This document shows positions 2,820 to 20,415 of a stretch of DNA of 64,000 bases, piece after piece. The position numbers were made by a program, and so were the translations under genes. The stretch is from Methanobacteriota archaeon. Lineage in GTDB: Archaea; Thermoplasmatota; Poseidoniia; Poseidoniales; Poseidoniaceae. The DNA lies in the NCBI GenBank assembly GCA_018659375.1, contig JABJMO010000063.1, positions 1,782-65,781 of the forward strand, in the 5' to 3' direction. Each line of letters starts with the position of its first letter. Positions within the stretch are counted from its first letter, which is position 1. The notes below the pieces were generated by a model that was given only the letters and a program-made list of their open reading frames with translations, was not told where the DNA came from and ran no database searches.

Positions 2820-3494
2820 TTATACTTCAAGGGCTGTTTTTAGCGCTTGAAAGTTTTCTTTGACTGAGGCTTGCTTGTTGAAAAGCCCAGAGCCAACCAC
2901 GCAATTAACAACGCCCCACTTGGCAACCATAGCAATGTTGTGGGCTTTTATGCCACCATCTATCTGTATCTGTACCGGCCTGCCACCATTAGCAACTTGT
3001 TGATCAATCATTGACTTAAGTCGTCTAATTTTACCCTCGACAGAAGCTATGAATGATTGACCGCCAAAGCCTGGATTGACGCTCATTATCAAAACCAGAT
3101 CGAGGTCTGGAAGAATTTCTCTTATTGTTTCGATTGAAGTAGCAGGATTTAGCACAACACCAGCAGTAGCGCCTGCGTCTCTAATTGCCATTATCAACCT
3201 GTGCAGATGAGTTGTCGCTTCGACGTGGACTGATATGTGGTTGCATCCGGCATTGATGTAGTCCATGTAGCATTCCTCTGCATTACTAATCATAAGGTGG
3301 GCATCAAAGTGAACATCGTTGCCAAGCGCATTGCGAAGAGATTTAATTACTGGTGGACCGAAAGTCAGGTTGGGGACAAAATTTCCGTCCATCACGTCTA
3401 AATGAAGTACATTTATGCCTGCATCGACTGCTTCTTGGCATGATACTGCTAGATTTGATAGGTCGGCGGTAAGGATACTTGGTGCAATTATCAT
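2820..3494 (-). CDS. rpe: Ribulose-phosphate 3-epimerase
   Basis: Motifs IIAPSILTADLSNL, HLDVMDGNFVPNLTFG and MSVNPGFGGQSF. I prefer the ATG at 3494 (MIIAPS...) over the track start at 3566, which adds 24 non-conserved residues. Confidence 0.9.
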   Translation of the reverse strand: MIIAPSILTADLSNLAVSCQEAVDAGINVLHLDVMDGNFVPNLTFGPPVIKSLRNALGNDVHFDAHLMISNAEECYMDYINAGCNHISVHVEATTHLHRLIMAIRDAGATAGVVLNPATSIETIREILPDLDLVLIMSVNPGFGGQSFIASVEGKIRRLKSMIDQQVANGGRPVQIQIDGGIKAHNIAMVAKWGVVNCVVGSGLFNKQASVKENFQALKTALEV

Positions 3495-3607
3495 AGCAGA
3501 ACATGTGGTGCCAAACAGCGGATTCTCATGAGCATTGTGCCTCGGATTGTAAAAAATATCGCACAAAGTCTCTTAATGCTCGATATTGACGGAGACTTAG
3601 TGAGACC

Positions 3608-3937
3608 ATGGGCGAAGTAAGGGCAGTCAGCGATTCCGAGTATGAAAATTCAGTGAATGATAGCGAGTGGGTGCTAGTAGACTTCTGGGCCCCTTGGTGC
3701 GGACCTTGTAAAGCAATAGCCCCCGTCTTAGAACAAGTGGCAAGTGAAAGAGAAATACTGATTGCTAAAGTCGATACCGATTCAAATCCTGCCAACGCTG
3801 GGAAACTTGGAGTTAGAGGAATTCCAGCACTATTTTTGTATCATAACGGCAAGGTCGTTTCTAAACAGAACGGTGCAATGCCAAAACCAGCACTATTGAG
3901 CTGGATTGACCAGCACATGTCTGCTGATGATTTCTAG
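3608..3937 (+). CDS. trxA: Thioredoxin
   Basis: 109 aa with the WCGPC active site (VDFWAPWCGPCKAIAP) and a GIRGIPALFLY..GK segment typical of the thioredoxin fold. Confidence 0.9.
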   Translation: MGEVRAVSDSEYENSVNDSEWVLVDFWAPWCGPCKAIAPVLEQVASEREILIAKVDTDSNPANAGKLGVRGIPALFLYHNGKVVSKQNGAMPKPALLSWIDQHMSADDF

Positions 3938-3939
3938 TC

Positions 3940-5451
3940 CTATTGGATATCTCTAAGCAAACGCTCTTTCAGCGCTTCATGAAGCCACATGCCATTAGGC
4001 ATCTCTATCAAAATCCCATGAGAAATCAAGTCTTTGGGTGGCGTCCCGGACCAACCCGATTTAGTAGCCAACAATTCCCAACTTACCGGCTTATCATGAC
4101 TGGCTAGGTTAGTTAGCAGTTGCCTTTCATTGTCGGGTAGTTTGAATAGAATCTCATCATCAAGGAATTGTAACCAGTCGACATGCAAAGATTGACCGTA
4201 TAATTCGAATAATTCCAATGCTAACGGATGCCCTCCGGTTTTTTCAAACACCGATTCTAAGTCTTCATCAATGTTTATCTTAGACAGCCAATTTTCCATT
4301 TCTCGCTTTGAGAGACCCTGCAATGAATGTTCTGTCACTATATCTCTGGTGTGTACATCTCTACGATCATAAACAGTTGGCCTAGTCCGTGAAATCATAA
4401 CTATCCGTAGTGGGGAAGATTTTGAGATTTGCAATAAGGCTCCCAGTAATTTTGCCGCTTCACTCTCAATATGATGTACATCATCGAGTACGATTAGCCA
4501 ATATGGAGGTGGGCCTCCAGATGCTGTTTTAAACCGTTCTCGAATAGTTCTAGCGTCTGTTAAGTAGGCTAGTAATCGTCTTCTCCAAGTATCAACATCG
4601 ACAATTCCTCCAGGATTTAGCGGGAGGGTTTCAATCAAGTTGTATGGGTCGTGTTTCTCATCTATGCCAAAGCGGTGTAGAAGACTGGTTGCTAGCCCAA
4701 GTGGTGTGTCCCAAGGTTGGCAAGGATACCAACAAACGGATAGATTTGGATTATCTTCTAATTTACTATTAAGCCAGTGAGCAACTAAGGTTGACTTGCC
4801 AATACCGGCAATTCCATGAATCACCATGCACGGTTTTCTTTCTCCAAACCAATCATTTAGTTCATCAATTTGACTTTCTCTTCCATGAACTACACGGGTT
4901 TTTGGCGGCTTGTTGTTATATGTTGCATGAGCCCCAGTAAGTGCTTTTAGGCGACCAGGTGGAGTGTTTTCTGATGACTCTGATTTTCTGATTACACCAA
5001 ATCTTATGTCACCGTAAGTTAACACTCCTTCGTGTTGTGCATGCATCAAAATTTGCAATAATGATATATTTGCATCTAGACGTTTGGGGACTTCAGATGC
5101 CTCTAATTCGAGCAATTCTCCTGAATTGTCCCTTATTACGATAGAAATAGCTGACAGGCGTTTAATTGTCGACTTTACCGATTTCCTCCCTTCATCGGTT
5201 AATTGCCAAGTTTTTTGACGCCGATCTTCACCTTTGACATTTCTAGTGTGCTCTGAGACTAATTCCTTGCGCAATAACTCCCGCATGGTGCGGCTAACAT
5301 TGGGTGGGTGGAGAGCACATGATTCAGCAATACCTGGCCTGGTTAATTCCGGTCCAACAAGGTATCTGTCGGCTTGTTCGTTGTTTTCAAACAAATGGAG
5401 CATTACGCGGTCTTGCACTGGGACATTGACCTTGGAAACTCCTGCGCTCAC
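3940..5451 (-). CDS. wHTH + NB-ARC/STAND P-loop NTPase (putative signal-transducing transcription regulator)
   Basis: N-terminal MarR-like wHTH (IAESCALHPPNVSRTMRELLRKELV...WQLTDEGRK). Walker A is VIHGIAGIGKSTLV and Walker B is YWLIVLDDVHH. GGHPLALELF matches the NB-ARC 'GLPLA' motif. I see no TPR or WD40 sensor repeats. Confidence 0.65.
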   Translation of the reverse strand: MSAGVSKVNVPVQDRVMLHLFENNEQADRYLVGPELTRPGIAESCALHPPNVSRTMRELLRKELVSEHTRNVKGEDRRQKTWQLTDEGRKSVKSTIKRLSAISIVIRDNSGELLELEASEVPKRLDANISLLQILMHAQHEGVLTYGDIRFGVIRKSESSENTPPGRLKALTGAHATYNNKPPKTRVVHGRESQIDELNDWFGERKPCMVIHGIAGIGKSTLVAHWLNSKLEDNPNLSVCWYPCQPWDTPLGLATSLLHRFGIDEKHDPYNLIETLPLNPGGIVDVDTWRRRLLAYLTDARTIRERFKTASGGPPPYWLIVLDDVHHIESEAAKLLGALLQISKSSPLRIVMISRTRPTVYDRRDVHTRDIVTEHSLQGLSKREMENWLSKINIDEDLESVFEKTGGHPLALELFELYGQSLHVDWLQFLDDEILFKLPDNERQLLTNLASHDKPVSWELLATKSGWSGTPPKDLISHGILIEMPNGMWLHEALKERLLRDIQ

Positions 5452-5556
5452 AGTTAATCCACTGGTTACTACAACTAAGCGGTTTTGGCATTTTGATAAT
5501 TTGATGTAAGAGCAAAATAACCATAATTCCTTTATTCGAGTAATGATGGGAAGGGT

Positions 5557-8500
5557 ATGGGTTCAGTTAGAATAACACTGTTGGTGCTGTCCATGCTCGT
5601 TTTGGCAACAATGCCAATTATTGTTTCAGCGGACTCAGATGGTGATGGTATAAGTGACGCCTCAGATGACTGCAAATGGTCCTCTGGAACTTCAACCATA
5701 GACAAAACGGGTTGCCCTGATTTTGACGGTGATGGGACCTCGGACATAAATGATCCATGGACTACATCTAATCCAAACTTTCAAACGGAACAAATTCTAA
5801 ATTCAAATCAAGATTATAATGACATTGAATATTCTGGCGACGGTTACAGTTTAGTCACCGGTGCTGATGACGGTTTTGTCAGGACTTGGAATTCATCAAC
5901 CTTCGTCAACATCAGATCTGCTGACCTTGGCTCGCAGATAAATTCTGTAGCATTTTCGCCCAACAGTAATTTAGTCGCTGCTGGTGTTGATGATGACACA
6001 GTGCATATTTTTGATGCTACTACTATGACCAGTCTGTATGGTTCAATTAGTGTTGATGTTGGCAGTGGTGAGAGAGTAAACGATGTTGAATTCTCTTTGG
6101 ATAGTTCGCTACTTGCTGTCTCTATTGGAAGGTCTGGAAATCAAGGAACTAATGGAATTGTTTCATTCATCAATACCTCTACTGGTAACTTTTTCAGTTC
6201 AGGGATAAACCCTGGGCAAGAAGATAGATTTTATGATACTGCATTCTCACCCGATAGTAATTTTATTGCAGTAGGTAGTGAAGGAGATTGGTATATTTCT
6301 GAAATTTCGACAGGGACTACTGTAGCATCGATTTCAAGCCCTCCTGATTCGGTAAATGCTATTGCGTGGTCGCCTGATGGCAATTATATCGTAATGTGTG
6401 GTGCTTACGAGACTAATGGAGCGCGTGTTCAAGTTCACGAATATGATGGTAGTGGCTGGCCAATTATCTGGGAAGTAGGAACAACTACATCTTGCTCTTC
6501 TGTAGACTTTTCACCGGATGGTTCTAAATTTGTTGTAGGAATGTACTGGTATGAAGCTGATGGAGCAACGGCCAAAATATATGACACCGCATCAAGTTTA
6601 CTAATTGATGAATTCTCTGGCCCAAGACCGAATAACTGTGCTGGAACCAACAATAATCAATGTGGCCAAATAGATGGGGTTTCTTGGCATCCAGATGGTA
6701 GTAAAATCGTTACATCTCACACTAGAAATGATGAAGGTGTTTACTTTTGGTATGCTGACCTGGACGAGGATCAAGACGGTTACAATACCTATGACCAAGG
6801 AGACGGCGTAGTTGACGCTTTTCCGACTGATGGTAGTCAATGGAATGATACTGATGGCGACGGTTACGGAGATAACCCTGCACCTGCGACCAATCCAGAT
6901 GCCTGCATAAGTCAATTTGGCACATCGACAGAAGACCGCTATGGCTGTCCTGATACCGATGGTGATGGATGGTCTGATGCAGGTGATTGGGCACCAAATG
7001 ATCCCGAACAATGGGTAGATAGTGACGGGGATGGCTATGGCGACCAGTACTATTACGACGTTACCGCAGTAGTATTCCATACTAATCAGCGTGGTGATGC
7101 TTTTCCAAATAATCCAACACAGTGGAATGACAGTGATAGCGATGGCTGGGGCGATAATTATAATGATCAATCTTGGGATCAAAACCGAGAATCTTCTTGG
7201 CCTGGATTGTTCAAAAGCAACGCCACGCAGGTAGATAAATTTCCACTTGATAACAATCAATGGGAAGATACCGACGGAGATTGGTATGGCGATAACCAAA
7301 TTGGTGATGATGCTGATGGTTGCCCCGATGTATTTGGTAATTCAACCGCTGATAGATACGGTTGCCCTGATACTGACGGTGATACTTATTCTGATCCAAC
7401 TGCTAACTGGGGCAGTATATCTCAAGGCGGATATTGTCAGGCCGACGGTATTCCACTAGATCCAACGCAATGGTGTGACCGAGACGGCGATGGCTATGGC
7501 GATAATGCAGATGGTAATTCACCAGATGAATGCCCAGATGACAAGGGGTATTCATTCATTGACAGAATCGGTTGTATCGATACCGATGAAGATGGTTACT
7601 CAGACCAAGGAGACCCATTTCCAAACGATGCTTCACAGTGGGAAAATAGAGATGGAGACTCACTAGATTGTGGTGGAGATAACCAAACTGGGTTAAATCC
7701 AGATGTATTTCCCGATGACCCTACTCAATGCAAAGATACCGATAGTGATGGTTATGGAGATAACGCAGCCGGAAATAATGGAGATGTATTCAAGAATGAC
7801 CCTACTCAATGGTCGGATTTTGATGGTGATGGTTATGGAGATAATAACGAAACTGGGGCTGTAAACGGAGACATCTGTCCTACCAGAGCCGGTAATTCCC
7901 CAAATCCACTAACTCGAGGATGTCCTGATACTGATGGTGATGGTTTTGTTGACCCCGAAGATGCGTTTCCTGAAAATCCGCTACAATGGTCTGACCAAGA
8001 TGGCGATGGCTATGGTGATGAGGTAAATCGCCCAGGAGGAGATGATTGTGTTGATGTATTTGGATTATCAAATCAAAATAATCGCTATGGATGTTTAGAT
8101 TCAGATGGTGACGGCTGGGCTGATGTAGACGATATATTCCCGCAAGATGGACTGCAATGGGTCGACACCGATGGTGATGGCTATGGAGACAATTACCTTT
8201 GGACTTTGACATTTATTGAAGACCAAGATAACCCTAACAGAATTATCGAATTAAGGCAACAAAGCGGCGATGCTTTTCCTGACTTTTCAAGCGAATGGAG
8301 TGACCAAGATGGCGATGGCTACGGGGATAATTTCAGCGATTTATTCCCACTTGAAGTCACTCAGTGGAGCGACCAAGATGGCGACGGATATGGTGATAAT
8401 TTCACTGGGGGAGCATTCCAACCTGACGACTGCGAAACGGTGTTTGGTCAATCTTATCTCGATGTCTTTGGCTGCCCAGATAGCGACCTAGATGGGATGA

Positions 8501-9778: not shown

Positions 9779-12262
9779 ATGGCGGGCGGAACCAGATTGG
9801 TAGTTGCTTTGCTCGCCGGGGTATTTTTATTATCAATTATACCGCATTCCTACGGACAAGAATCTACTAATTCCAACTTGATTTTATTATTGGAAAGTGA
9901 CATTGAACAAACCTACATTGAAGGAGATAGGTTGACCTTAGATGTTCAATTATTCAACCCAACAGAAAAAGTTACCATTAGCAACAACCCTTCATGCGAA
10001 TTTATTTTTGCTATTATCAATTCATATGGCGATGAAGTTTATTCATCCGAAACAACTTGTAGAAACCAAATCCAAACTATTGTGATTGATGAAAATGAAA
10101 AATATGATTTAACTACTCAGTATTGGGATTTTACCGATGCACAAGACCAGATAATACCATCTGGAACCTACACAATAGATATCGCTCACAGCAAGGAACC
10201 AATTTACAATTCTCTGGTTTTTGAATTTTACAGTTCCGCAAATAATAATAATAATTTAGATTTAAAGGCTAAATTAGTCGACATAGATGATGATTCTTAC
10301 TTAGCTCAATTTACTATTTACAATCCAAGTACTGAGCCGATTATCACCGACAATATTGACTGTACTATTATCTTAGAAAACCAAATGCATCGGTTTATTT
10401 TCGATGACTGCTTCAATGGTGCTGCAATTTTACATCCATTCGAAAATATCTATTCTTCTAGCCAACTGATACCTAAAGGATGGATTAATGACAATAGTTC
10501 GCTAAAATATTCTATTCTTGGTGCTGATGAAAATTACCTTTTCCCATCAAATGAAACTTCTGATGGTAATCGAGAAGAAGTATTGCCAGCAACTGTTCAA
10601 AATACCCCATCCGTTACAAAAAACGAACTAGTACTAAGTCAAGTTGGTTCGACTATATCGCTCCAAGTTAATTTGGCTGAGCACACTAATGTTGGCTCAG
10701 AGTGTCATGCTGATGTAACCATCGTCAATGATTTGGGGGACTTGGTAAAAAGTTTGAACGTTGACTATTGTGAGATGATTAACAAAAGTACTGAAGGAAA
10801 TTCAAACATAATGAAGGAGTTATACCAATGGGAGTTAACTGACAGTTATGGCTGTTACATCGAACAAGGCAGATATACCATCATTGTAGGTATAGAGGAT
10901 TCGTATTATTCTGCAGATTATCAAAATTATGATGCCAACACTGCTATTTCTTGCTTATCAAATCACATCAATGTCGATTCAGAGAATTTTATTCTAGACG
11001 AGTCCATTTACAGCAGAATAACATTAAGTTCTGAAGATGGAATAATAAGACTATATTCAGACTGTATCATCAAGATTCAATATAACTCAAATGATGAGGC
11101 CTACGAAATTCCCTCATTCGAGATTTGTGGATATACCGCTGGGAATTACTTAACACCAAACGAGAATAGTTACTTGATTAGCCATAAAACACAAATTTCT
11201 GATTTGGCATATATGGAAAAAATTGATTTATCTTATAAAATTAGTTTAGAATTTACACAATACTATGAAGATTCTATATACACTTACTTTGGACAAACAT
11301 TGAAAGATGAAAAAGATTTAATTCGAATCAATGGTCAGTGGGATTTGGTTCAATTTAATGGCGATAGTTGTTGGATGATTAGTTCGCCAAATTCTGCCTT
11401 CATGCTAGGCGATCTTAATCAGGCTAGGGTTTGGACTCCGCACAAGGGCTGGAGCGGCGAATATTCTGCTTCACTAGCAGAAGATCAAAATAATGTTTGT
11501 GGATTATTTGGCTTACCAATAATAACCATAAACTCCGTTTACTCTGAAAGTGAGCTCATTGAGCAAGTGTTCTTATCTGAACAAGGACCTGATGAAGAAG
11601 AAACTGTAACAGTTACCGAAATAGCAGTTATTAGTGTTACAAGTTCGTCGATAGTCTTCGGTTTACTGGTAATTATATCTAATACTGAAAGTCTTAGAAT
11701 ACCAACAACTACTGCAGGCCTGTGGTTGTTAGGTTTGGTCGGCAAGACTCATGAAACCACTGATGGGCGTTTTCAACGTGGCCGTTTAATAGGTTACCTT
11801 ACAGCCAATCCTGGGTGTCATTTTAGAGCATTAATGGCAGCATTAAGTATGAGTAATGGACAAATTACCCATCATTTACGATTACTAGAAAATCAGGAGT
11901 TAATTTGGCGAGTCAATGATGGAAGGTTTGTCAGATATTATCCTTTGAATAACTCACTATATCCTGGTATGAATCCTGAAAATTTGCCCGTACCATTACT
12001 ATCACCGGACCCTAAAAGCTTACAGGGGAAGATTCTCACACTTCTTGATGATGAGCACCAGTACGGAGAGTTCCCTACCCAATCTGAACTGGCAAAAAAA
12101 TTAGCAAAGAGCCAGCAGTTAATCTCCCACCATCTAAGAACATTACAGAAATATGGCTTGGTTGAAAAACGAAAAATGGGCATCAAGAATAGATATAAGT
12201 TGACTAGAGAAGCAATCTTTTTGTTAGAAACTGACTTAGAATTTATCAAACTCAAAGAATAG
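9779..12262 (+). CDS. Membrane-tethered protein: signal peptide, roughly 600-aa Cys-paired beta-rich ectodomain, TM, two cytoplasmic ArsR-like wHTH domains
   Basis: Signal peptide MAGGTRLVVALLAGVFLLSIIPHSYG. TM helix is IAVISVTSSSIVFGLLVIISN. wHTH 1 is GYLTANPGCHFRALMAALSMSNGQITHHLRLLENQELIWRV. wHTH 2 is ILTLLDDEHQYGEFPTQSELAKKLAKSQQLISHHLRTLQKYGLVEKR. Confidence 0.7.
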   Translation: MAGGTRLVVALLAGVFLLSIIPHSYGQESTNSNLILLLESDIEQTYIEGDRLTLDVQLFNPTEKVTISNNPSCEFIFAIINSYGDEVYSSETTCRNQIQTIVIDENEKYDLTTQYWDFTDAQDQIIPSGTYTIDIAHSKEPIYNSLVFEFYSSANNNNNLDLKAKLVDIDDDSYLAQFTIYNPSTEPIITDNIDCTIILENQMHRFIFDDCFNGAAILHPFENIYSSSQLIPKGWINDNSSLKYSILGADENYLFPSNETSDGNREEVLPATVQNTPSVTKNELVLSQVGSTISLQVNLAEHTNVGSECHADVTIVNDLGDLVKSLNVDYCEMINKSTEGNSNIMKELYQWELTDSYGCYIEQGRYTIIVGIEDSYYSADYQNYDANTAISCLSNHINVDSENFILDESIYSRITLSSEDGIIRLYSDCIIKIQYNSNDEAYEIPSFEICGYTAGNYLTPNENSYLISHKTQISDLAYMEKIDLSYKISLEFTQYYEDSIYTYFGQTLKDEKDLIRINGQWDLVQFNGDSCWMISSPNSAFMLGDLNQARVWTPHKGWSGEYSASLAEDQNNVCGLFGLPIITINSVYSESELIEQVFLSEQGPDEEETVTVTEIAVISVTSSSIVFGLLVIISNTESLRIPTTTAGLWLLGLVGKTHETTDGRFQRGRLIGYLTANPGCHFRALMAALSMSNGQITHHLRLLENQELIWRVNDGRFVRYYPLNNSLYPGMNPENLPVPLLSPDPKSLQGKILTLLDDEHQYGEFPTQSELAKKLAKSQQLISHHLRTLQKYGLVEKRKMGIKNRYKLTREAIFLLETDLEFIKLKE

Positions 12263-13136
12263 TTTCAGTCTTAAAAACGCCGGTGAAGTCAATTGACCAG
12301 TCAATATGACTCCACCCCTTTTCCTCGAGTGAAGAGATTATTTGTTCCCTTTCTGATAAATTATTAATCACAATGCCAACAACTCCACCACCACCTGCCC
12401 CCATGGCTTTCCATGTCGCAACCAAATTTTGTTTGGTAAACTCAGCAAGAACTTGTCGGAATGGTTGATGGAGTTCTTCTCCAAGCATATCAACTGCAAT
12501 CATTACTTGATTTATCGATGATATCACTGCTGCTTTTGATTCCTTGGAAATTGCTGATGCCATATCTAGGCCAGCTTGCCTAATCATGTCTAAAGCGCTA
12601 GATATCTCTTCATCCCCATTCTTATATCGTGCCCAAACCCTATCGTGCAACTCACCAGATACGTGAGTAATATGACTGTTAAACAACAAAATATGATTTT
12701 CAAGCCAACTACAAAATTCCGTTGATGGTGAAAGAGGGTTTACTTTGACTTCTTCATTTGCGAAGGTAAGATGGTTTATCCCCCCTAGTGCGCTAGCCCA
12801 TTGGTCTTGCCTACCACCTTTATTACCCATTAAAGCCTCAAACTGATAAGCAATTTCAGCAGCATCAAGAGAATCTTTTGAATTAGACATGATGGTTGAA
12901 ATTAATCCTACATTCATCGCACCACTTGTGCCCAGTCCCGAACCAGTTGGCATATCTGTTGAATATGACAATGATATTTTTCGCTCGTCATCAATAATCA
13001 TCTCACTTCTAACATACTGATTGATGGCGATGTTAACCACTTCTCCAGTTTTATTCTGGCAGTATACTGGGACATCTGTCCAACCTCCCGCCAAATCGAT
13101 TCTTGACGGCACCCGAACCTCAATTCTGCGACCCAT
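12252..13136 (-). CDS. GHMP-family sugar kinase (HddA/fucokinase-like)
   Basis: N-terminus RVPSRIDLAGGWTDVPVYC resembles the heptose-7-P kinase / fucokinase family (R(I/L)(S/D)(F/L).GGGTD). The GHMP motif is MPTGSGLGTSGAMNVG. Confidence 0.7.
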   Translation of the reverse strand: MGRRIEVRVPSRIDLAGGWTDVPVYCQNKTGEVVNIAINQYVRSEMIIDDERKISLSYSTDMPTGSGLGTSGAMNVGLISTIMSNSKDSLDAAEIAYQFEALMGNKGGRQDQWASALGGINHLTFANEEVKVNPLSPSTEFCSWLENHILLFNSHITHVSGELHDRVWARYKNGDEEISSALDMIRQAGLDMASAISKESKAAVISSINQVMIAVDMLGEELHQPFRQVLAEFTKQNLVATWKAMGAGGGGVVGIVINNLSEREQIISSLEEKGWSHIDWSIDFTGVFKTETIL

Positions 13137-13188
13137 GACTAACCTAGGTCAAATTGGTTCTTCAATAGTGGGTTTGAAATGGCAACTT

Positions 13189-16047
13189 ATGGTGGGAGTA
13201 ATATTCCGGAATGGAGGTGCCCCCTTGAATTACAGTATCCAAAGCGTCAATGAAGATTATTGGCAAATGCGCTGGGATGAAGAAAAGATTTTTCATTCAA
13301 AGATAAATCACGGAAAACCCTCCTTTTATTGTCTTGAAATGTACCCATATCCTTCTGGGAAAATGCATATGGGCCACGTTAGAAACTACTCGATTGGCGA
13401 TGCTGTTGCCCGATTCAAGAGGATGACAGGTCATGATGTATTGTATCCAATGGGGTTTGATTCATTTGGCATGCCAGCGGAAAACGCTGCAATCAAAGAA
13501 GGTGGGCATCCACATGACATTACCGAACGTAACATGGCTTCAATAACCAAGCAAATTAAAAGAATGGGATTTTCTTATGATTGGCGAAGAATGGTCAAGA
13601 GTCACGATCCAAATTATTACAAGTGGAATCAATGGTTTTTTACTAAATTCTTTGAAACTGGCTTAGCATTTCAAGAATTTGCTCCAGTTAACTGGTGTAA
13701 CACTTGTAACACGGTTCTAGCAAACGAACAAGTCAAGGCTGGAAGATGCTGGAGATGTAATGGACCGGTAAAGCAAAAGGAAATGAGTCAATGGTTTTTG
13801 GATATTCCAAAGTATGCACAGGAACTTGTTGACGGCTTAGATACCATCAATTTCCCAGAAAATGTTGCGGCAATGCAACGGGATTGGCTTGGCCGTTCTG
13901 AAGGTGCCGAGATAACCTTTGAAATCGAAGATTCCGACCAGACAATCACTGTTTTTACTACTAGGCCTGATACCTTGTTTGGAGTTACTTTTATCACTCT
14001 AGCACCTGAACATCCTCTAGCAGAACAATTAGTCCTCGGAACTGAATTTGAATCTGGTTGGAAAGCATTACATGATGAAGTATCAGTAATGACAGAGTTT
14101 GACAGAATCAAAAACATGAACAAAAAGAACGGTGTACCGCTTGGAAAGTATGCAATCCATCCGTTAACTGGCGAAAAAATTCCAATTTGGAGTGGAAACT
14201 TTGTCATCGCATCTTATGGAACAGGCGCAGTAATGGCTGTTCCGGCACACGATGAGAGAGATTTCGATTTCGCACAAAAATTTGCCATACCCATCAAACG
14301 TGCACTTGTGATGAGCGAGGGTGGCGACGAATCAGCCGAGCTAACAAAAGCGGAAACTGAATATGGTTGGATGGTAAATAGCGGCTCAACGAAATTTGAT
14401 GGTTTACACGGTCATGCTGCTGTAACCGCAGTAATTGACGAGTTGGTGAAGCATGGTAAGGGGGAGAGAAAACTAAATTGGAAAATCCGCCCTTGGTTAA
14501 TCTCAAGACAGAGGTATTGGGGCACTCCAATCCCAATAATTCACTGTGATGAGTGTGGTGCAGTTCCCGTACCTGAGGAAGATTTGCCGGTTGAGCTACC
14601 ACGAGACATTGTGTTTGGTAAAGGCAACCCTCTTGAGACATCAGCGGAATTTATGGAGGTAAAATGTCCAAAATGTGGCAAAGATGCGCGCAGGGAAACC
14701 GATACCATGGATACCTTTGTTGATTCCTCATGGTATTTCTTGAGGTATACGGACGCAACCAATAACGATGAATGTTTTTCTAAAGAAGCCGCAAACGATT
14801 GGATGAATGTTGACTTCTACTGTGGTGGTATTGAACACGCACAGATGCACCTAATCTACGCACGGTTTTGGACAAAGGCACTCAGAGATTTGGGACTTCA
14901 CTCTATCGATGAACCATTCAATGAATTACTCTGCCAAGGCATGGTAAACAAAGCAGCACCGTGGTGTGAATCCTGCGCAATCACCCTCAGCGTCGACCAT
15001 ATTAGCATGCCTTGCCCACAATGTGGCGATGCCTTATCGATGAGATCCGCTAAAATGAGTAAATCACTGGGGAATACCGTATCTCCCGAAGCTATGATTG
15101 AACAGTTTGGGGCAGATACTGTTAGACTGTTTATTCTATTTGCAGCCAATCCTACCGCAGGAATGGATTGGTCAGACACTGCATTGGAAGCCAATCATAG
15201 AGTAATGTTGCAATTACAATCCATTCCTGAAACAATATTAAATTGGGGTAATGAGAACTCTGCAATAGATGATTGGTTGACTGCTAGATTAAAGCAACGA
15301 GTTAGTGAATTTAATCAAGCAATGAAAACTTACGATTTACGTAGAGCTGTTGAAATTTCTCATTATGAGTTGATCAAAGATGTCAATTGGTATATTCGTC
15401 GTGGTGGCAATAATGTTGAGGTAGGAAAAAGCCTAATGGAAAGTTGGACTTATCTAATTTCAGTTTCGACCCCCCATTTAGCGGAAGAATGGGGCAAATG
15501 CCTAGAATTTAGTCAATTGGTTTCTGCGTCTGAAATGCCAAGTGTCAAAAATCTAGAATCTGATGAGCAACTCAACCTTGACAAGGAGTTTATCATGAGA
15601 GGGGTCCTTGAGAATGTGCGTAAAGTAAAATCAATTGCTGAACGGCATCTTGATGGAGCAGCCAAGGTTTTGACTTTGGTGACCGCCCCTGATTGGAAAC
15701 AGAAGTTGTCGGTAAATGCAATAAATTTCATTGCAGATGGTGGCAATGTCAGAAACTTCATTCAAGAAATTAAACAGATGAGTTTTGTTAATGAGCATAA
15801 CATGGGTGAAATCCTGCAATATTGGAACAAGAGGATGTTGTCTCAAGTATTCAAGTGGGATGATAAAGCGAAAGAATTAATCCTCCAAAATATCGATGAA
15901 ATAGAGGTGCTGAGTACAAGAGCAGAATTCTTTGCTAAAGAGTTAGGACTAGAAGAAATCAAAGTCATCAAGACAGAAGATTATGACCTTGCTGATGGGC
16001 GGGAAAAATCTGCTTTACCGCTAAGCCCAGGCATTATTTTTGCTTGA
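13189..16047 (+). CDS. leuS: Leucyl-tRNA synthetase
   Basis: Class I signatures PYPSGKMHMGHVRNY (HIGH-type) and KMSKSLGN (KMSKS), with archaeal-type length. The track ORF starts at 13021 but overlaps the divergent GHMP kinase. I chose the ATG at 13189, just upstream of the conserved ...YWQMRWDEEKIF; the start itself is uncertain. Confidence 0.93.
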   Translation: MVGVIFRNGGAPLNYSIQSVNEDYWQMRWDEEKIFHSKINHGKPSFYCLEMYPYPSGKMHMGHVRNYSIGDAVARFKRMTGHDVLYPMGFDSFGMPAENAAIKEGGHPHDITERNMASITKQIKRMGFSYDWRRMVKSHDPNYYKWNQWFFTKFFETGLAFQEFAPVNWCNTCNTVLANEQVKAGRCWRCNGPVKQKEMSQWFLDIPKYAQELVDGLDTINFPENVAAMQRDWLGRSEGAEITFEIEDSDQTITVFTTRPDTLFGVTFITLAPEHPLAEQLVLGTEFESGWKALHDEVSVMTEFDRIKNMNKKNGVPLGKYAIHPLTGEKIPIWSGNFVIASYGTGAVMAVPAHDERDFDFAQKFAIPIKRALVMSEGGDESAELTKAETEYGWMVNSGSTKFDGLHGHAAVTAVIDELVKHGKGERKLNWKIRPWLISRQRYWGTPIPIIHCDECGAVPVPEEDLPVELPRDIVFGKGNPLETSAEFMEVKCPKCGKDARRETDTMDTFVDSSWYFLRYTDATNNDECFSKEAANDWMNVDFYCGGIEHAQMHLIYARFWTKALRDLGLHSIDEPFNELLCQGMVNKAAPWCESCAITLSVDHISMPCPQCGDALSMRSAKMSKSLGNTVSPEAMIEQFGADTVRLFILFAANPTAGMDWSDTALEANHRVMLQLQSIPETILNWGNENSAIDDWLTARLKQRVSEFNQAMKTYDLRRAVEISHYELIKDVNWYIRRGGNNVEVGKSLMESWTYLISVSTPHLAEEWGKCLEFSQLVSASEMPSVKNLESDEQLNLDKEFIMRGVLENVRKVKSIAERHLDGAAKVLTLVTAPDWKQKLSVNAINFIADGGNVRNFIQEIKQMSFVNEHNMGEILQYWNKRMLSQVFKWDDKAKELILQNIDEIEVLSTRAEFFAKELGLEEIKVIKTEDYDLADGREKSALPLSPGIIFA

Positions 16048-16057
16048 GGTAAATGTC

Positions 16058-16564
16058 ATGTCCCATCCTGACTTGATTCTAAGGAAGCAATTAATGATTG
16101 ACCAATCGCGTAATGTTAGTTTCAATTTGTTAAATTTGAATTGTTGGCCTTTGTGGAACAAAGTTGCCAACAGAATTTTATCTGAGCAGCAGGGCCTGTT
16201 ACAAGAAAATCAGCGTTTCGACCTCCACCGTATTATAGCGCAACAATTGGTTGAGGATTTGTGGCAAGTTTCACAAATTAAATCTTCAGAAGATCCATGC
16301 TTTGCTGAACTTCGCTTAACCTGGATTGGTCAAAAAATCAATGGCCGGACCTCTGCCCTAGCAATACAACGTTTGGTTGTCGAAATTACTGTATTAGAAA
16401 CTGACAATGGCGGGCTTGAAATCTCTGCCTGGTGGGACATTTCAAAGTTGGGCCGGTTACTACGATTTGGTAAACGTTCAGTCAAGGCAATTGTTTCCCA
16501 GTTGTTTGATGATTTAACAAGCCACGGGACTATTGAGTACCAACAAGTTTCTGAAAATGAATAG
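16058..16564 (+). CDS. Hypothetical protein (168 aa), immediately downstream of leuS
   Basis: ATG at 16058 lies 11 nt after the leuS stop and is preceded by GAGG. I recognise no motifs. Its composition looks like a normal globular protein. Confidence 0.5.
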   Translation: MSHPDLILRKQLMIDQSRNVSFNLLNLNCWPLWNKVANRILSEQQGLLQENQRFDLHRIIAQQLVEDLWQVSQIKSSEDPCFAELRLTWIGQKINGRTSALAIQRLVVEITVLETDNGGLEISAWWDISKLGRLLRFGKRSVKAIVSQLFDDLTSHGTIEYQQVSENE

Positions 16565-16619
16565 ATATAACCGGATGACAATGCGATAGTTCAAAGAATG
16601 TCGGCATTGACAGTGGTAT

Positions 16620-17654
16620 GTGACCTCGAGAAAACAACCTGAAAATTCTCGGTCACGCAATCGGCAAAATAACAAGCGATACGGAACTACCAGAAAATCT
16701 GTTTTGATGGAACGAAGTGCGGAATTTGTTGAGGATGCACAAAAAAAAGCCAATCAGCGGTTTGATTTGGCTGAAAAACCGCTGGGCATTCCCGAAGAAA
16801 TGGCGGAAGTAAAGAAATTTTCATTTGACTGGAAAAATAGCCCGGTTCCGTTAACAGATGAAGAATCGCTGTCAAAATTTGTGCTACGTAAGGGTGAATT
16901 TGGTTGGCTTGAAGATGACCGAGTTCAGGAGATCGCTGATTTTGTCGACAAAAAGAAAATGACTCTGGATCAAGCATTATCACTTAGATCTGCCCTGTTA
17001 CAACAGAAGACTGTTTATGGTCACGGCAGGTTAAAGTCTCGCGCAAAAGCGCTAAACAGGCTATATTCTGAAGGAGTTTCTGTTGTCGATTTATCTAAGC
17101 GTTTTGATTTCCCTCCAATGAATATATTCAGAATCGTATTAGCTGAAAAGCGTTGGTCTAAATCACGAATCAAGGAATGTCTAAGAGACCCTAGTAAAAT
17201 GAAAGAAAGAGAGAGGAACGAATTTGAGATGGCAGAAGCTGCTGATCGGGTATCAAATGTTGATCAATCTGAAACTCATACTAGGGCGGATCTGTTCGAA
17301 GAAATCCTATCAGATTGGTTTGAATCAAAAGGAGTAACAATCAGACGACAGCCTGAAATGGTATCTGAACAAAAACTTGAACATGGCAGGCCGATAAATA
17401 CTCCTGATATACTATTTCTAGACCATGTTGAGATTAATGGAAACCCAATTGCTTGGATTGATGCTAAACACTTCTATGGGGCAGATGTGGCATTTCAACG
17501 CAAGAAAATGTCGAAGCAAATGAACCGCTATATCGATGAATGGGGAAGTGGTGCTGTGGTATATCGTCACGGTTTTAGTGAGAATTTGTTTATTCCTGGC
17601 TGCACTATGCTTGATGCTGGAGTGCTGGATCTATCCAAACTAGGATCTGGCTAG
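16620..17654 (+). CDS. PD-(D/E)xK nuclease with TPD motif, CDIN1/C15orf41-like
   Basis: C-terminal core is INTPDILFLDHVEINGNPIAWIDAKHFYG...GSGAVVYRHGF (D ... D-x-K). An upstream helical region contains ECLRDPSKM. The N-terminal tail is basic (SRKQPENSRSRNRQNNKRYGTTRK). Motif order matches my recollection of human CDIN1. Confidence 0.6.
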   Translation: MTSRKQPENSRSRNRQNNKRYGTTRKSVLMERSAEFVEDAQKKANQRFDLAEKPLGIPEEMAEVKKFSFDWKNSPVPLTDEESLSKFVLRKGEFGWLEDDRVQEIADFVDKKKMTLDQALSLRSALLQQKTVYGHGRLKSRAKALNRLYSEGVSVVDLSKRFDFPPMNIFRIVLAEKRWSKSRIKECLRDPSKMKERERNEFEMAEAADRVSNVDQSETHTRADLFEEILSDWFESKGVTIRRQPEMVSEQKLEHGRPINTPDILFLDHVEINGNPIAWIDAKHFYGADVAFQRKKMSKQMNRYIDEWGSGAVVYRHGFSENLFIPGCTMLDAGVLDLSKLGSG

Positions 17655-18625
17655 GATGAAATACTGGTTATTATTGATCCTAAGTTTAACTGAAGTAAAT
17701 TGTTGTTTAGATCATCAAGCTCTTGTTTAGTTATCTGTCTGCTTAGTTTTCTAGGCAATATGACCACAGAAACTCCTAGCATACATAGCCTAATACTGAG
17801 ATGAGCTTGTAATTCTAAATCTTTGACGATCTTGCGTACTAAATTTAGCAACTGCTTTCTTTCAATCTCATCAAGTAATTCTGATTCCCTAGAAAAAATA
17901 TTTGATTGTATTAAAATATCAGACCAACGAGAATGATTCCAAGGTCCTGTTTTGAGTTTGTTAAGGGCTCTATGGCCTGCTTGAGTAATTTTTAATTGCC
18001 AATCAGGATTATCGATATAACTCGAAGTATGCCTTGTTTCTTCAGGTTGCCAAACCACAATTACCGGTTGACGACACGGGAAACCTAAACTCCGACCTGA
18101 AGCACCTGGTGCACCTGGTTGCAAGCGCATTTCTACGCCACCTGCATAAATGCCCAAAACATCACCAAGGCCAGAGCCACGCAATCTCTCTATTCGATGA
18201 CAAATCCGATAATATTGATCAAGGTTACCTTCACCGGTTAATTCTCTAAATGCAGTAGCAAGAGCAATTAATCCTGCAGCAGACATTCCCATTCCCTGAC
18301 TTGTTGGCAATTGCAGAATAATTTCAATATCGAAAGTATAATTTTCATGCAGCAGTCTTGCATAAACCAATTCATCAATTAATTGACGATACTGTTGTTC
18401 AGAGTCGACTAACAGATCACCTTGATGGTCGGTGATGGTAACTGTTGAATCTGAGATTTGGCCGTCATTGGCTAGTTGTGTGACCTTTGCGATAACTCCG
18501 TGGTCGATATTCAATCCAACTCCCCTGCTACCTTGATTACGTAGTAGACGGCCCTCTTTTTCAATAGTGAAAAGCAGAGTAATGTGCCCCCCAATATGGG
18601 ATTGCGCCTCTGTGTCCATGCTCAT
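17651..18625 (-). CDS. Pantoate kinase (archaeal CoA pathway, GHMP family)
   Basis: N-terminus HIGGHITLLFTI...GSRGVGLNIDHG resembles archaeal PoK (PAHITAFF...GS.GAG.N). The GHMP motif is LPTSQGMGMSAAGLIALATAF. The phosphopantothenate synthetase gene lies about 1 kb away. Confidence 0.7.
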   Translation of the reverse strand: MSMDTEAQSHIGGHITLLFTIEKEGRLLRNQGSRGVGLNIDHGVIAKVTQLANDGQISDSTVTITDHQGDLLVDSEQQYRQLIDELVYARLLHENYTFDIEIILQLPTSQGMGMSAAGLIALATAFRELTGEGNLDQYYRICHRIERLRGSGLGDVLGIYAGGVEMRLQPGAPGASGRSLGFPCRQPVIVVWQPEETRHTSSYIDNPDWQLKITQAGHRALNKLKTGPWNHSRWSDILIQSNIFSRESELLDEIERKQLLNLVRKIVKDLELQAHLSIRLCMLGVSVVILPRKLSRQITKQELDDLNNNLLQLNLGSIITSISS

Positions 18626-18726
18626 GCCAAGTAAACTATGGATTTGAATTGTCTTATGTTTCTATGATTATATTGCTAATTTAGTTTAGGGGTGAAATTC
18701 TATATTATGAGCCCATTGGATTAATC

Positions 18727-19665
18727 ATGGCGGAGGCTGGCATATTACCCCACGACCGCGGTCATTTACTATGGACTGCGGATGAAGGAGTTAGCAGATT
18801 GTTGCTCTCTAGCATGGACCGTTGGATTACTACGGTTTTAGCTGATGATTGTATTGATAGCCCGCTATTTGGCATGGGAGAAAAGACCACTGCGACAATT
18901 ATCGCCAAAGATGATGGTTTGGTGGCAGGAACTGCAATGGTTGACCATCTAATTCAGATTTGGGCTCCTTCAATTAACATTAATTGGCATGCATCTGATG
19001 GCAAAAAAGTGTCAATAGGCGATGATATTGCAACGGTTACTGGAGATCAAGAAAGTATACTAAAAATTGAGCGAAGTATCCTAAATATCCTAGGTCAGTT
19101 ATCCGGAATTGCCACAGAGACTAAAAAATGGTCTACTATTGCTGTCAAGCAGATTGCGTGCACTCGCAAGACGACTTGGGGGCTACTGGATAAATGGGCT
19201 GTTCACCTTGGTGGCGGCTTAACTCATCGACTAAATCGAGAAGATGCTTTAATGATTAAAGAAAATGATTTGGCTTCAATGGATGAAGTTTCGAACGATA
19301 ATAATGAGAGAATTGCTAAATTTATTCAAGAATTAGATTTAGAACAATTAAATTCTTTTTTGACAATTGAAGTTCGGACAGAAAAAGAAGCAATTACTGC
19401 CGCCGCTATATGGCAAAACACTCACGGAGAATCAGGCCATAAAGCGGTAATTATGTTAGATAATTTCGGACCTGAAAAATCTAAACAAGTAGTTAGACAA
19501 TTAGAAGAAATGGGGCTTAGAGACGCCGTTTATTTGGAAGCTAGTGGCAACATTACCCATGAAAAGTTGGAACTGTGGTTTGAATGTGGCATCGATGTTT
19601 TATCGACTAGTGCGATTAACCGTGGAGTAAAACCGTTGGATATGTCGATGATATTTGGTGATTAA
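18727..19665 (+). CDS. nadC: Nicotinate-nucleotide (quinolinate) pyrophosphorylase family
   Basis: Motifs ERSILNILGQLSGIATETKKW, CTRKTTWGLLDKWAVHLGGGLTHRLNREDALMIKEND, VIMLDNF and LEASGNIT...GIDVLSTSA. Confidence 0.75.
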   Translation: MAEAGILPHDRGHLLWTADEGVSRLLLSSMDRWITTVLADDCIDSPLFGMGEKTTATIIAKDDGLVAGTAMVDHLIQIWAPSININWHASDGKKVSIGDDIATVTGDQESILKIERSILNILGQLSGIATETKKWSTIAVKQIACTRKTTWGLLDKWAVHLGGGLTHRLNREDALMIKENDLASMDEVSNDNNERIAKFIQELDLEQLNSFLTIEVRTEKEAITAAAIWQNTHGESGHKAVIMLDNFGPEKSKQVVRQLEEMGLRDAVYLEASGNITHEKLELWFECGIDVLSTSAINRGVKPLDMSMIFGD

Positions 19666-20415
19666 ATGTCTAGTTTCTCTGCTGACCCAAGTCATCCTAG
19701 ATATCAATCCTTATTGAGCAGACATAGGCTTGAACAGGCAGCAAAGCAAGGTATGCTTGCTGATAGTGCATTAATCGCCCATGGGCGCGGGGAGGCTTAT
19801 GATTACTTAATCGGCGAAAAGACCTCGCCAAATGCCTTAGAAGCCACAAAAAATGCCTTGGCACACTTAATAGCCGGAAAAAAATCAGTAATTTCGCTCA
19901 ATGGCAATACTACAGCGTTAGCAGGGTATGAGTTGATGAAAATTGCTGAATACTTGCAATGTCCTATTGAGGTCAATATTTTTTATCGTACAGAACAGCG
20001 TATTAGTGCCTTATTTGGATATTTAGATGCGATAAAACAGGAACATGGTATTAACGTTAATATCCTTGGTAAAAATCCTGATACGAAGATTCCAGGGCTC
20101 AAAGGGCCTAGAGCAAAATGTTGTACTGAAGGGATTTACTCTAGCGATGTCATCTTAGTACCGCTTGAAGACGGAGACCGTTGTGAGGCATTGGTTGCTA
20201 TGGGTAAAACCGTTATTGTTGTAGACCTTAATCCCTTATCTAGATCAGCAAAAATGGCATCGATTACCATTGTTGATGAAATTTCTAGAGTTTCTAAAAG
20301 GATGCTAAACTTAATCCAAGCCAATGATTTACCAAGTATACAAATAGAATTCAATAATGATAAAAATCTTCAGGCAAGTGTTAACATTATTGCTGGAAAC
20401 TACCGTAATGTTTAG
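19666..20415 (+). CDS. 4-phosphopantoate--beta-alanine ligase (phosphopantothenate synthetase, archaeal)
   Basis: N-terminus SHPRYQSLLSRHRLEQAAKQGMLADSALIAHGRGEAYDYLIGEKT closely follows the conserved archaeal PPS N-terminus (SHPRY.SL..RE.......G.....GLIAHGRGEAFDYL.GE.T). The ATG directly follows the nadC TAA. Confidence 0.8.
   Translation: MSSFSADPSHPRYQSLLSRHRLEQAAKQGMLADSALIAHGRGEAYDYLIGEKTSPNALEATKNALAHLIAGKKSVISLNGNTTALAGYELMKIAEYLQCPIEVNIFYRTEQRISALFGYLDAIKQEHGINVNILGKNPDTKIPGLKGPRAKCCTEGIYSSDVILVPLEDGDRCEALVAMGKTVIVVDLNPLSRSAKMASITIVDEISRVSKRMLNLIQANDLPSIQIEFNNDKNLQASVNIIAGNYRNV

Follow-up and report, generated by a model that had tools for sequence, protein, structure and literature searches.

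Here we report that an open reading frame (ORF) of a Marine Group II archaeon (Poseidoniaceae), located at positions 16620-17654 of the window (the whole stretch of DNA analysed, 64,000 nucleotides of contig JABJMO010000063.1), codes for a full-length protein of the CDIN1 family (C15orf41, Pfam TPD). The gene, hereafter the nuclease gene, is preceded by a conserved 168-residue ORF (orf168), itself located downstream of leuS. Taken as a whole, the data are best explained by a CDIN1-family PD-(D/E)xK nuclease that is directed at RNA, independent of Codanin-1, part of the core gene set of its lineage, and likely exchanged with protists or giant viruses, a reading which we consider very likely to be correct.

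A full-length CDIN1-family protein

Family membership was supported by both profile and pairwise comparisons. The translated ORF matched Pfam PF14811 (TPD) with an E-value of 2e-19 and 70.3 bits, above the curated cut-off of 27, and this match covered residues 197-323 of the protein and positions 4-124 of the 138 in the profile, confirming a TPD assignment first proposed in an earlier note on this DNA. Database entries 99% identical to the protein bear the same PF14811 label. Among 1.84 billion cluster representatives, 1132 relatives were identified, and another search yielded 816 homologues, including one named by NCBI as [quoted passage not shown]. Many relatives are 260-300 residues long and align to residues ~65-340 of the archaeal protein, so that the homology spans nearly the whole of a CDIN1-sized protein and extends beyond the C-terminal motif region. 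Across the family alignment, E227, P262, D263, W279, K283, Q300, and Y304 are invariant.

The connection to vertebrate CDIN1 is direct. A human CDIN1 sequence, which served as a search probe only, retrieved proteins named "CDAN1-interacting nuclease 1", including a 281-residue mammalian representative (P0312) 98% identical to the probe. When the archaeal protein was compared by BLASTP to P0312, which represents the mammalian CDIN1 cluster, the two were 26% identical across 193 aligned residues (E = 1e-10), with the LRDPS, TPD, (D/E)xK, and G-x-G-(V/I)-Y motifs aligned. The four human motifs quoted in the earlier note (SMLRDPSQI, KTPDFIL, HWIESKASFG, and GPGLVIYWYGF) are all found in P0312, and the archaeal motifs that it had matched to them (ECLRDPSKM, INTPDILF, IAWIDAKHFYG, and GSGAVVYRHGF) all occur in the translation of ORF 16620-17654, in the order described. 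Its central proposal, an archaeal CDIN1/C15orf41 homologue with a PD-(D/E)xK core, is thus upheld by the agreement of the Pfam match, the BLASTP alignment, the catalytic tetrad, and the structural matches to viral proteins presented below.

Active site and predicted fold

Human CDIN1 relies on four catalytic residues, E166, D196, E214, and K216 (PMC13463051), which correspond to E227, D263, D281, and K283 of the archaeal protein in a 41-sequence alignment. E227, D263, and K283 are invariant in these 41 diverse family members, with either D or E at position 281. The residues that contact the substrate in the human enzyme (R101, T194, Q232, and Y236) align with R171, T261, Q300, and Y304, respectively, and all four are conserved. 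Within Marine Group II (Poseidoniales), catalytic and substrate-contact residues, including D281 and R171, are invariant across 81 sequences.

An AlphaFold2 model of the protein, based on a 36-sequence alignment, obtained a mean predicted local distance difference test (pLDDT) score of 90.8 and a predicted template modelling (pTM) score of 0.86. The N-domain is modelled as eight helices (residues 78-88, 99-110, 116-140, 142-150, 155-162, 166-176, 181-189, and 196-208), and the C-domain as a helix (217-236), a strand (241-243), a helix (244-255), three strands (264-266, 269-272, and 279-283), a helix (291-308), and two final strands (311-315 and 328-332). In this model, the protein shows the alpha-beta-beta-beta-alpha-beta order of a PD-(D/E)xK core, with E227 on helix 217-236, D263 following the 256-263 loop and directly preceding strand 264-266, and D281 and K283 on strand 279-283. 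This arrangement agrees with the description of human CDIN1, in which eight helices make up the N-domain and a single connecting helix leads to an alpha/beta/alpha C-domain built around a central mixed sheet (PMC13463051). The corresponding features of the gene are as follows:

16620-17654 (+): CDIN1/TPD-family nuclease gene, 344 residues, GTG start (ORF and translation, Pfam PF14811, homologues, dN/dS)
16620-16766 (+): archaeon-specific N-terminal extension, with a predicted disordered tail (residues 1-25) and two predicted helices (26-49) (AlphaFold2 model, BLASTP)
16812-17243 (+): predicted all-helical N-domain (residues ~65-208, eight helices, including ECLRDPSKM), counterpart of the human CDIN1 N-domain
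17268-17624 (+): predicted PD-(D/E)xK nuclease domain (residues ~217-335), with connecting helix and alpha/beta/alpha core
17298-17300 (+): E227 codon, invariant; the residue matches human E166 and is a predicted metal ligand
17406-17408 (+): D263 codon, invariant, read directly from the sequence; the residue is the D of TPD, matches human D196, and is a predicted metal ligand
17460-17468 (+): (D/E)xK motif, codons of D281-A282-K283; D281 and K283 match human E214 and K216

Compared by Foldseek to predicted viral structures, the model matched A0A8F8SNR0 from BFVD (E = 7e-26, template modelling (TM) scores of 0.75/0.85 over 288 columns), a Powai lake megavirus TPD protein (A0A167RJG3, E = 2e-12), and the "CDAN1-interacting nuclease 1" of Acanthamoeba polyphaga mimivirus (A0A2L2DJP4, E = 2e-8). 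Structure prediction therefore speaks for the fold that had been read from the motifs, both through the PD-(D/E)xK order of the model and through significant matches to giant-virus CDIN1/TPD models.

The extra N-terminal part falls short of the approximately 130 residues initially attributed to it. The N-terminus of mammalian CDIN1 aligns near archaeal residue 74 in the 41-sequence alignment, the family-wide alignment is conserved from residue ~65, and BLASTP alignments to the closest non-archaeal relatives begin at residues 50-65, which together set the extension at ~50-74 residues. The model predicts a disordered tail over residues 1-25 (pLDDT of ~50 for residues 1-20) followed by helices at residues 26-32 and 34-49. 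All 80 related loci (see below) encode a basic tail rich in Arg, Lys, Asn, and Ser and ending in K/R-R/K-Y/H-G, which varies in both length and sequence. The GTG start is shared at the same place by the closest relatives, with ATG found in more distant ones, and this start is credible given that both the GTG and the basic tail are retained in relatives.

A core gene of Poseidoniales

To place the gene in its genomic context, we compared the best 80 of the 398 stretches encoding a relative across contigs of bacteria and archaea (one genome per species). These 80 loci all derived from Poseidoniales/Marine Group II, with record titles referring to Poseidoniales, Poseidoniaceae, or unclassified euryarchaeal (Euryarchaeota/Methanobacteriota) metagenome-assembled genomes, and their nucleases were 65-97% identical to the one studied here. 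At the distant end of this range, identity was 65-67% for the nuclease vs. 63-67% for leucyl-tRNA synthetase (LeuRS), and the product of the neighbouring GHMP kinase gene was far less conserved than the nuclease (38-65%). The ratio of nonsynonymous to synonymous substitution rates (dN/dS) of the nuclease gene was 0.02-0.07 relative to close relatives, and its position between housekeeping genes was fixed in all 80 genomes. The nuclease gene is a vertically inherited core gene of Poseidoniales, conserved to the same degree as LeuRS. A gene fixed and conserved in this way across abundant ocean archaea points to a housekeeping role in these organisms.

Predicted activity

[quoted passage not shown] It cuts double-stranded RNA from the 3′ ends and, in RNA:DNA hybrids, attacks the RNA strand from its 3′ end (PMC13463051). 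Both CDIN1 and the CDIN1-Codanin-1 complex were inactive on the DNA substrates tested, including junctions (PMC7261414; PMC13463051). By analogy, the archaeal protein is most likely a Mg2+-dependent PD-(D/E)xK nuclease, in which E227, D263, and D281 would bind Mg2+ and K283 would complete the active site. Homology to the human enzyme suggests that its most likely substrate would be an RNA 3′ end within a duplex, either double-stranded RNA or an RNA:DNA hybrid, and the basic N-terminal tail may provide additional grip on nucleic acids. Codanin-1 has been reported in animals and a few protists only (PMC7092493), and since archaea have no Codanin-1, the archaeal enzyme would work without this scaffold. 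Tight binding to the C-terminus of Codanin-1 is a hallmark of the animal complex and not of the protein family. Nuclease activity, RNA as the substrate, and the roles considered here for the tail and for orf168 are what we infer from these comparisons.

Several observations weigh against this reading. Foldseek comparison of the model to the PDB gave nothing significant, with the restriction enzyme BsaWI as top match (E = 0.31, probability 0.23), and sequence searches of the PDB with either the protein or the 36-sequence profile gave neither a CDIN1/TPD-family structure nor any other significant match. Because the PDB copy searched contains no solved CDIN1, the fold assignment rests on predicted models; cryogenic electron microscopy studies of Codanin-1 left CDIN1 unresolved (PMC13463051). 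Human CDIN1 alone is only weakly active and requires Codanin-1 for processive cutting (PMC13463051), a partner that archaea lack. At 20-26% identity to the human protein, substrate preference could differ, and a weak profile and fold likeness to T7 endonuclease I would fit a DNA-junction nuclease equally well. According to this last alternative, the protein would be a DNA structure-specific endonuclease acting on Holliday junctions or flaps in repair or recombination, and not an RNA nuclease. T7 endonuclease I (3cae) is the top match of the family profile in the PDB and its only sequence match to a solved structure (E = 0.1, on the E...TPDFLL segment), a viral endodeoxyribonuclease I model was recovered by Foldseek (probability 0.92, E = 0.07), and a likeness to archaeal Hjc resolvases had been proposed in the early literature (PMC7261414). 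However, the T7 endonuclease I similarity is non-significant and limited to ~50 residues, and human CDIN1 cuts RNA and none of the DNA substrates tested, with or without Codanin-1 (PMC7261414; PMC13463051), which makes a DNA nuclease unlikely. A role as a restriction or defence nuclease, or as part of a mobile element, could likewise be suggested by the PD-(D/E)xK fold and by the restriction enzyme found as top, albeit non-significant, PDB fold match. Yet PADLOC returned no match for either the nuclease or orf168, a scan of IMG/VR viral contigs with the nuclease and with P0150, one of its environmental relatives, found no relative, and both the fixed chromosomal place in 80 of 80 genomes and the very low dN/dS argue against such a role, which is scarcely credible. 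In effect, the conservation of gene order at this core locus already refutes the defence/restriction reading.

The upstream gene orf168

The earlier note had also proposed that orf168 and the nuclease gene form a two-gene module tied to leuS. The features of the locus outside of the nuclease gene are as follows:

13021-16047 (+): leuS (leucyl-tRNA synthetase), upstream neighbour only; listed start is the TTG at 13021 (ORF list)
16045-16047 (+): leuS stop codon TGA (direct sequence reading)
16046-16049 (+): GAGG, Shine-Dalgarno-like, 5′ of orf168 and overlapping the leuS stop codon (direct sequence reading)
16058-16564 (+): orf168, 168 residues, ATG at 16058; conserved, fast-evolving gene 5′ of the nuclease gene
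16565-16619 (+): 55-nucleotide spacer between orf168 and the nuclease gene, identical in length in the closest relatives (L001-L005)
17651-18625 (-): GHMP kinase, pantoate-kinase-like, convergent, downstream neighbour only (Pfam GHMP_kinases_N)

Direct reading of the sequence confirmed that the orf168 ATG lies 11 nucleotides past the leuS stop, behind a GAGG. An orf168 homologue is found directly 5′ of the nuclease gene and on the same strand in 68 of the 80 Poseidoniales loci. In most of them the intergenic distance is -4 to +56 nucleotides, and many loci, in more distant genomes, display stop/start overlaps of 1 or 4 nucleotides, so the two genes are probably co-transcribed. Across 35 aligned members, orf168 is conserved in length and includes nine invariant residues (W30, W33, W69, G91, Q92, T111, G119, E121, and D152), which, along with a dN/dS of 0.09-0.15, indicates that it is a real protein-coding gene. 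It evolves much faster than its neighbour, at 26-53% identity vs. 65-78% for the nuclease.

The association is frequent and not universal. No orf168 family member was found within 6 kb of the nuclease gene in the remaining 12 of 80 loci. These include L006 and L007, in which the nuclease is 81% identical to the one in the window and leuS abuts the nuclease gene, while in the other orf168-less loci leuS and the nuclease gene are separated by an opposite-strand gene of ~900-980 codons. The nuclease retains all its catalytic residues in genomes lacking orf168. Beyond archaea, an orf168 profile identified nothing adjacent or fused on the five contigs with non-archaeal TPD genes, and no match among 286 TPD-family proteins comprising distant relatives and named vertebrate CDIN1. 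The module idea thus holds for the upstream position of orf168 in 68 of 80 loci, and fails for the 12 loci without it and for the five non-archaeal homologues. The opposite-strand gene, observed at ~2900-5900 in each of the Poseidoniaceae loci L022, L025, L034, L041, L042, L053, L071, and L079, where orf168 is absent, has a signal-like N-terminus.

The fold of orf168 could only be approached through weak similarities. It matched no Pfam, NCBIfam, or PADLOC family, and a 35-sequence profile returned nothing from the PDB. Two of the 35 members matched Polyketide_cyc2 (PF10604) at an E-value of 1 or better, one of them at E = 0.006 (17.3 bits against a cut-off of 27.4), and the orf168 of the window did not match. 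The only PDB sequence match for the family was a weak one to 7wa9, MSMEG_5634 (E = 0.26 and 0.44), which is a helix-grip protein (PMC9014085). These two independent weak hints fall in the same superfamily and represent a lead towards a helix-grip (SRPBCC) fold, not a result. An AlphaFold2 model of orf168 from a shallow alignment had a pLDDT of 46, and its Foldseek matches were noise.

Given this association, the nuclease could depend on orf168 as an obligate second subunit, one that would correspond to Codanin-1 in archaea. The same-strand adjacency in 68 of 80 loci, the frequent overlaps of 1-4 nucleotides, the purifying selection acting on both genes, and the partner needed by human CDIN1 for full activity would all fit. 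However, orf168 is absent from 12 of 80 loci, including close relatives L006 and L007, where the catalytic residues are still kept, it evolves faster than the nuclease, and it was not found at the five non-archaeal homologues. In addition, the convergent GHMP kinase gene lies downstream in 80 of 80 loci and is thus a more constant neighbour than orf168, so that adjacency within one archaeal family is weak evidence for a functional link and may just reflect inherited gene order. On balance, we consider an obligate complex to be improbable.

Evolutionary origin

The closest non-archaeal relatives of the nuclease are found among environmental sequences. P0148 and P0149 share 52% and 48% identity with it by BLASTP, over 279-290 residues, and, with their neighbours, are 415-765 residues long and contain N-terminal repeats of the form CxxC...FSxxQW...CxxC. 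P0148 and P0152 (L084 and L083) are each alone on a transcript-like contig of ~2 kb, and P0163 includes a Pfam Stc1 domain above threshold, which we take to be a eukaryotic feature. P0150 (562 residues, 49% identity to the nuclease) is encoded at 2140-3828 of L081, a 42-kb Logan contig from SRR24302422 that also includes many small genes without a Pfam match, a RING-finger gene, and a DUF7796 gene, and which may come from a giant virus or a protist. Classed solely by their zinc-finger repeats, Stc1 domain, amino-acid composition, and contig content, P0148-like relatives are probably protist proteins. Throughout the set P0148-P0169 (L083, L084, and L085), the TPD/CDIN1 region is fused to one to four of these N-terminal CxxC...FSxxQW...CxxC repeats, an architecture we did not see described in the CDIN1 literature consulted.

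In a rough neighbour-joining tree built without support values from 135 sequences and 264 columns, archaeal sequences formed a single compact clade nested among long-branch protist- or virus-like environmental sequences, and vertebrate CDIN1 was placed on a distant long branch. Among archaea, published surveys report the family in Euryarchaeota only (PMC7092493). The nested compact clade, the protist-like relatives at 48-52% identity, and the restriction to Euryarchaeota together favor a horizontal exchange, in which the partners would have been Marine Group II and planktonic eukaryotes or viruses of the latter. We consider such a transfer reasonably likely, and prefer it to the idea that the eukaryotic gene arose in archaea. 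The earlier suggestion that this gene bears on the origin of a eukaryotic chromatin factor is accordingly weakened, the archaeal clade being nested among protist- or virus-like sequences, far from vertebrate CDIN1. The presence of the family in archaea and its wide distribution in eukaryotes (PMC7092493), along with its status as a stable core gene in Poseidoniales, could still be read as an archaeal gene that is the vertical ancestor of eukaryotic CDIN1. Yet reported archaeal occurrences are confined to Euryarchaeota (PMC7092493), the best 80 genome matches all come from the single order Poseidoniales, the compact archaeal clade sits within long-branch environmental sequences, and the nearest relatives (48-52% identity) carry zinc-finger repeats or Stc1, as opposed to vertebrate CDIN1 at 20-26%, so that vertical ancestry is very unlikely. 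A more elaborate scenario would combine horizontal exchange with a partner role for orf168: the ancestor of Marine Group II would have acquired the nuclease from a marine protist or giant virus, after which it became a core gene, and orf168 would be a lineage-specific nuclease-binding partner, possibly SRPBCC-like, regulating the enzyme or feeding it substrate in place of Codanin-1. This combination is, in our view, quite unlikely.

Gene order and neighbouring genes

The proposed tie to leuS comes down to conserved gene order among the closest relatives. Only in ~20 of the 80 loci, namely the closest ones, is leuS the immediate neighbour of orf168 or of the nuclease gene. Elsewhere, another gene intervenes and the distance grows to 2.5-5 kb, and in many genomes an opposite-strand gene of ~2.8 kb lies between leuS and the TPD gene, or ahead of the orf168-TPD pair where orf168 is present. 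The adjacency is inherited gene order, with no functional tie. In the window, the listed leuS ORF (TTG at 13021) overlaps a GHMP kinase gene at 12252-13136, so that leuS probably begins at a start codon downstream of this TTG.

Downstream, the 3′ ends of the nuclease gene and of the convergent GHMP kinase gene (17651-18625) overlap by 4 nucleotides. This kinase matched NCBIfam pantoate kinase models at E-values of ~1e-18, under their cut-offs, and opens an archaeal coenzyme A gene cluster that adjoins the nuclease gene (17651-20415) and continues with a QRPTase-family gene (18727-19665, +) and a phosphopantothenate synthetase gene (PF02006, 19666-20415, +). The second GHMP kinase gene (12252-13136, -) is divergent from leuS, and its best NCBIfam likeness is to sugar-phosphate and fucose kinases, far under cut-offs. 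Further upstream, an 827-residue ORF (9779-12262, +) combines an N-terminal hydrophobic signal-like segment, a long extracellular-looking region rich in Asn, Ser, and Asp, a hydrophobic stretch, and two C-terminal winged-helix domains of the ArsR/SmtB type (matched in two stretches by NCBIfam HTH_metalloreg, E = 1e-16). If anchored in the membrane with its helix-turn-helix domains in the cytoplasm, such a protein would represent an unusual one-component sensor. Rfam and tRNA scans detected no RNA gene within or near the region.

Significance

The existence of archaeal relatives of CDIN1 is already known. C15orf41 orthologues have been stated to occur in Euryarchaeota (PMC7092493) and in eukaryotes, archaea, and viruses (PMC6519365), and the NCBI protein name cited above points in the same direction; a literature search on PF14811 and "TPD domain-containing" found no paper. 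What this analysis adds is the mapping of newly established catalytic and substrate-contact residues onto the archaeal protein, a corrected length for its N-terminal extension, its core-gene status with conservation like that of LeuRS, a frequent but non-universal upstream companion gene, and its closeness to protist-like homologues that are fused to zinc fingers. The pattern of relationships suggests that these archaea have exchanged the gene with planktonic eukaryotes or with viruses of the latter, and says little on the origin of eukaryotic chromatin factors. As the human enzyme is difficult to work with and Codanin-1-dependent, with no CDIN1 structure in the PDB copy searched, a compact, strongly conserved, and confidently modelled archaeal version free of Codanin-1 could suit both structural work and enzymology.

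Comparison with known systems

The archaeal protein shares with human CDIN1 its domain order (helical N-domain, long connecting helix, and PD-(D/E)xK C-domain), its catalytic tetrad (E, the D of TPD, and D/E-x-K), and the LRDPS and G-x-G-(V/I)-Y motifs. It differs from it by an overall identity of only 20-26%, a (D/E)xK motif starting with D instead of E, a basic N-terminal extension of 50-74 residues, a gene located in a prokaryotic operon-like pair with orf168, and the lack of a Codanin-1 partner in archaea (distribution per PMC7092493).

The TPD/CDIN1 proteins of giant viruses match it structurally over the whole protein, with TM scores of up to 0.85 between predicted models, and are presumably free-standing like the archaeal protein; we know of no partner subunit for them. 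They are however shorter (~210-300 residues), by length without the basic N-terminal extension, and share 18-28% identity with it. The Stc1-like zinc-finger/CDIN1 environmental proteins are the closest outside of the archaeal clade, with 48-52% identity over ~280-290 residues and shared motifs, but include 100-450 extra N-terminal residues with zinc-finger repeats. Finally, T7 endonuclease I and type II restriction enzymes display the same order of catalytic motifs, in which an E on the first helix precedes PD and (D/E)xK, whereas they lack the helical N-domain, cut DNA and not RNA, and resemble the archaeal protein at a non-significant level.

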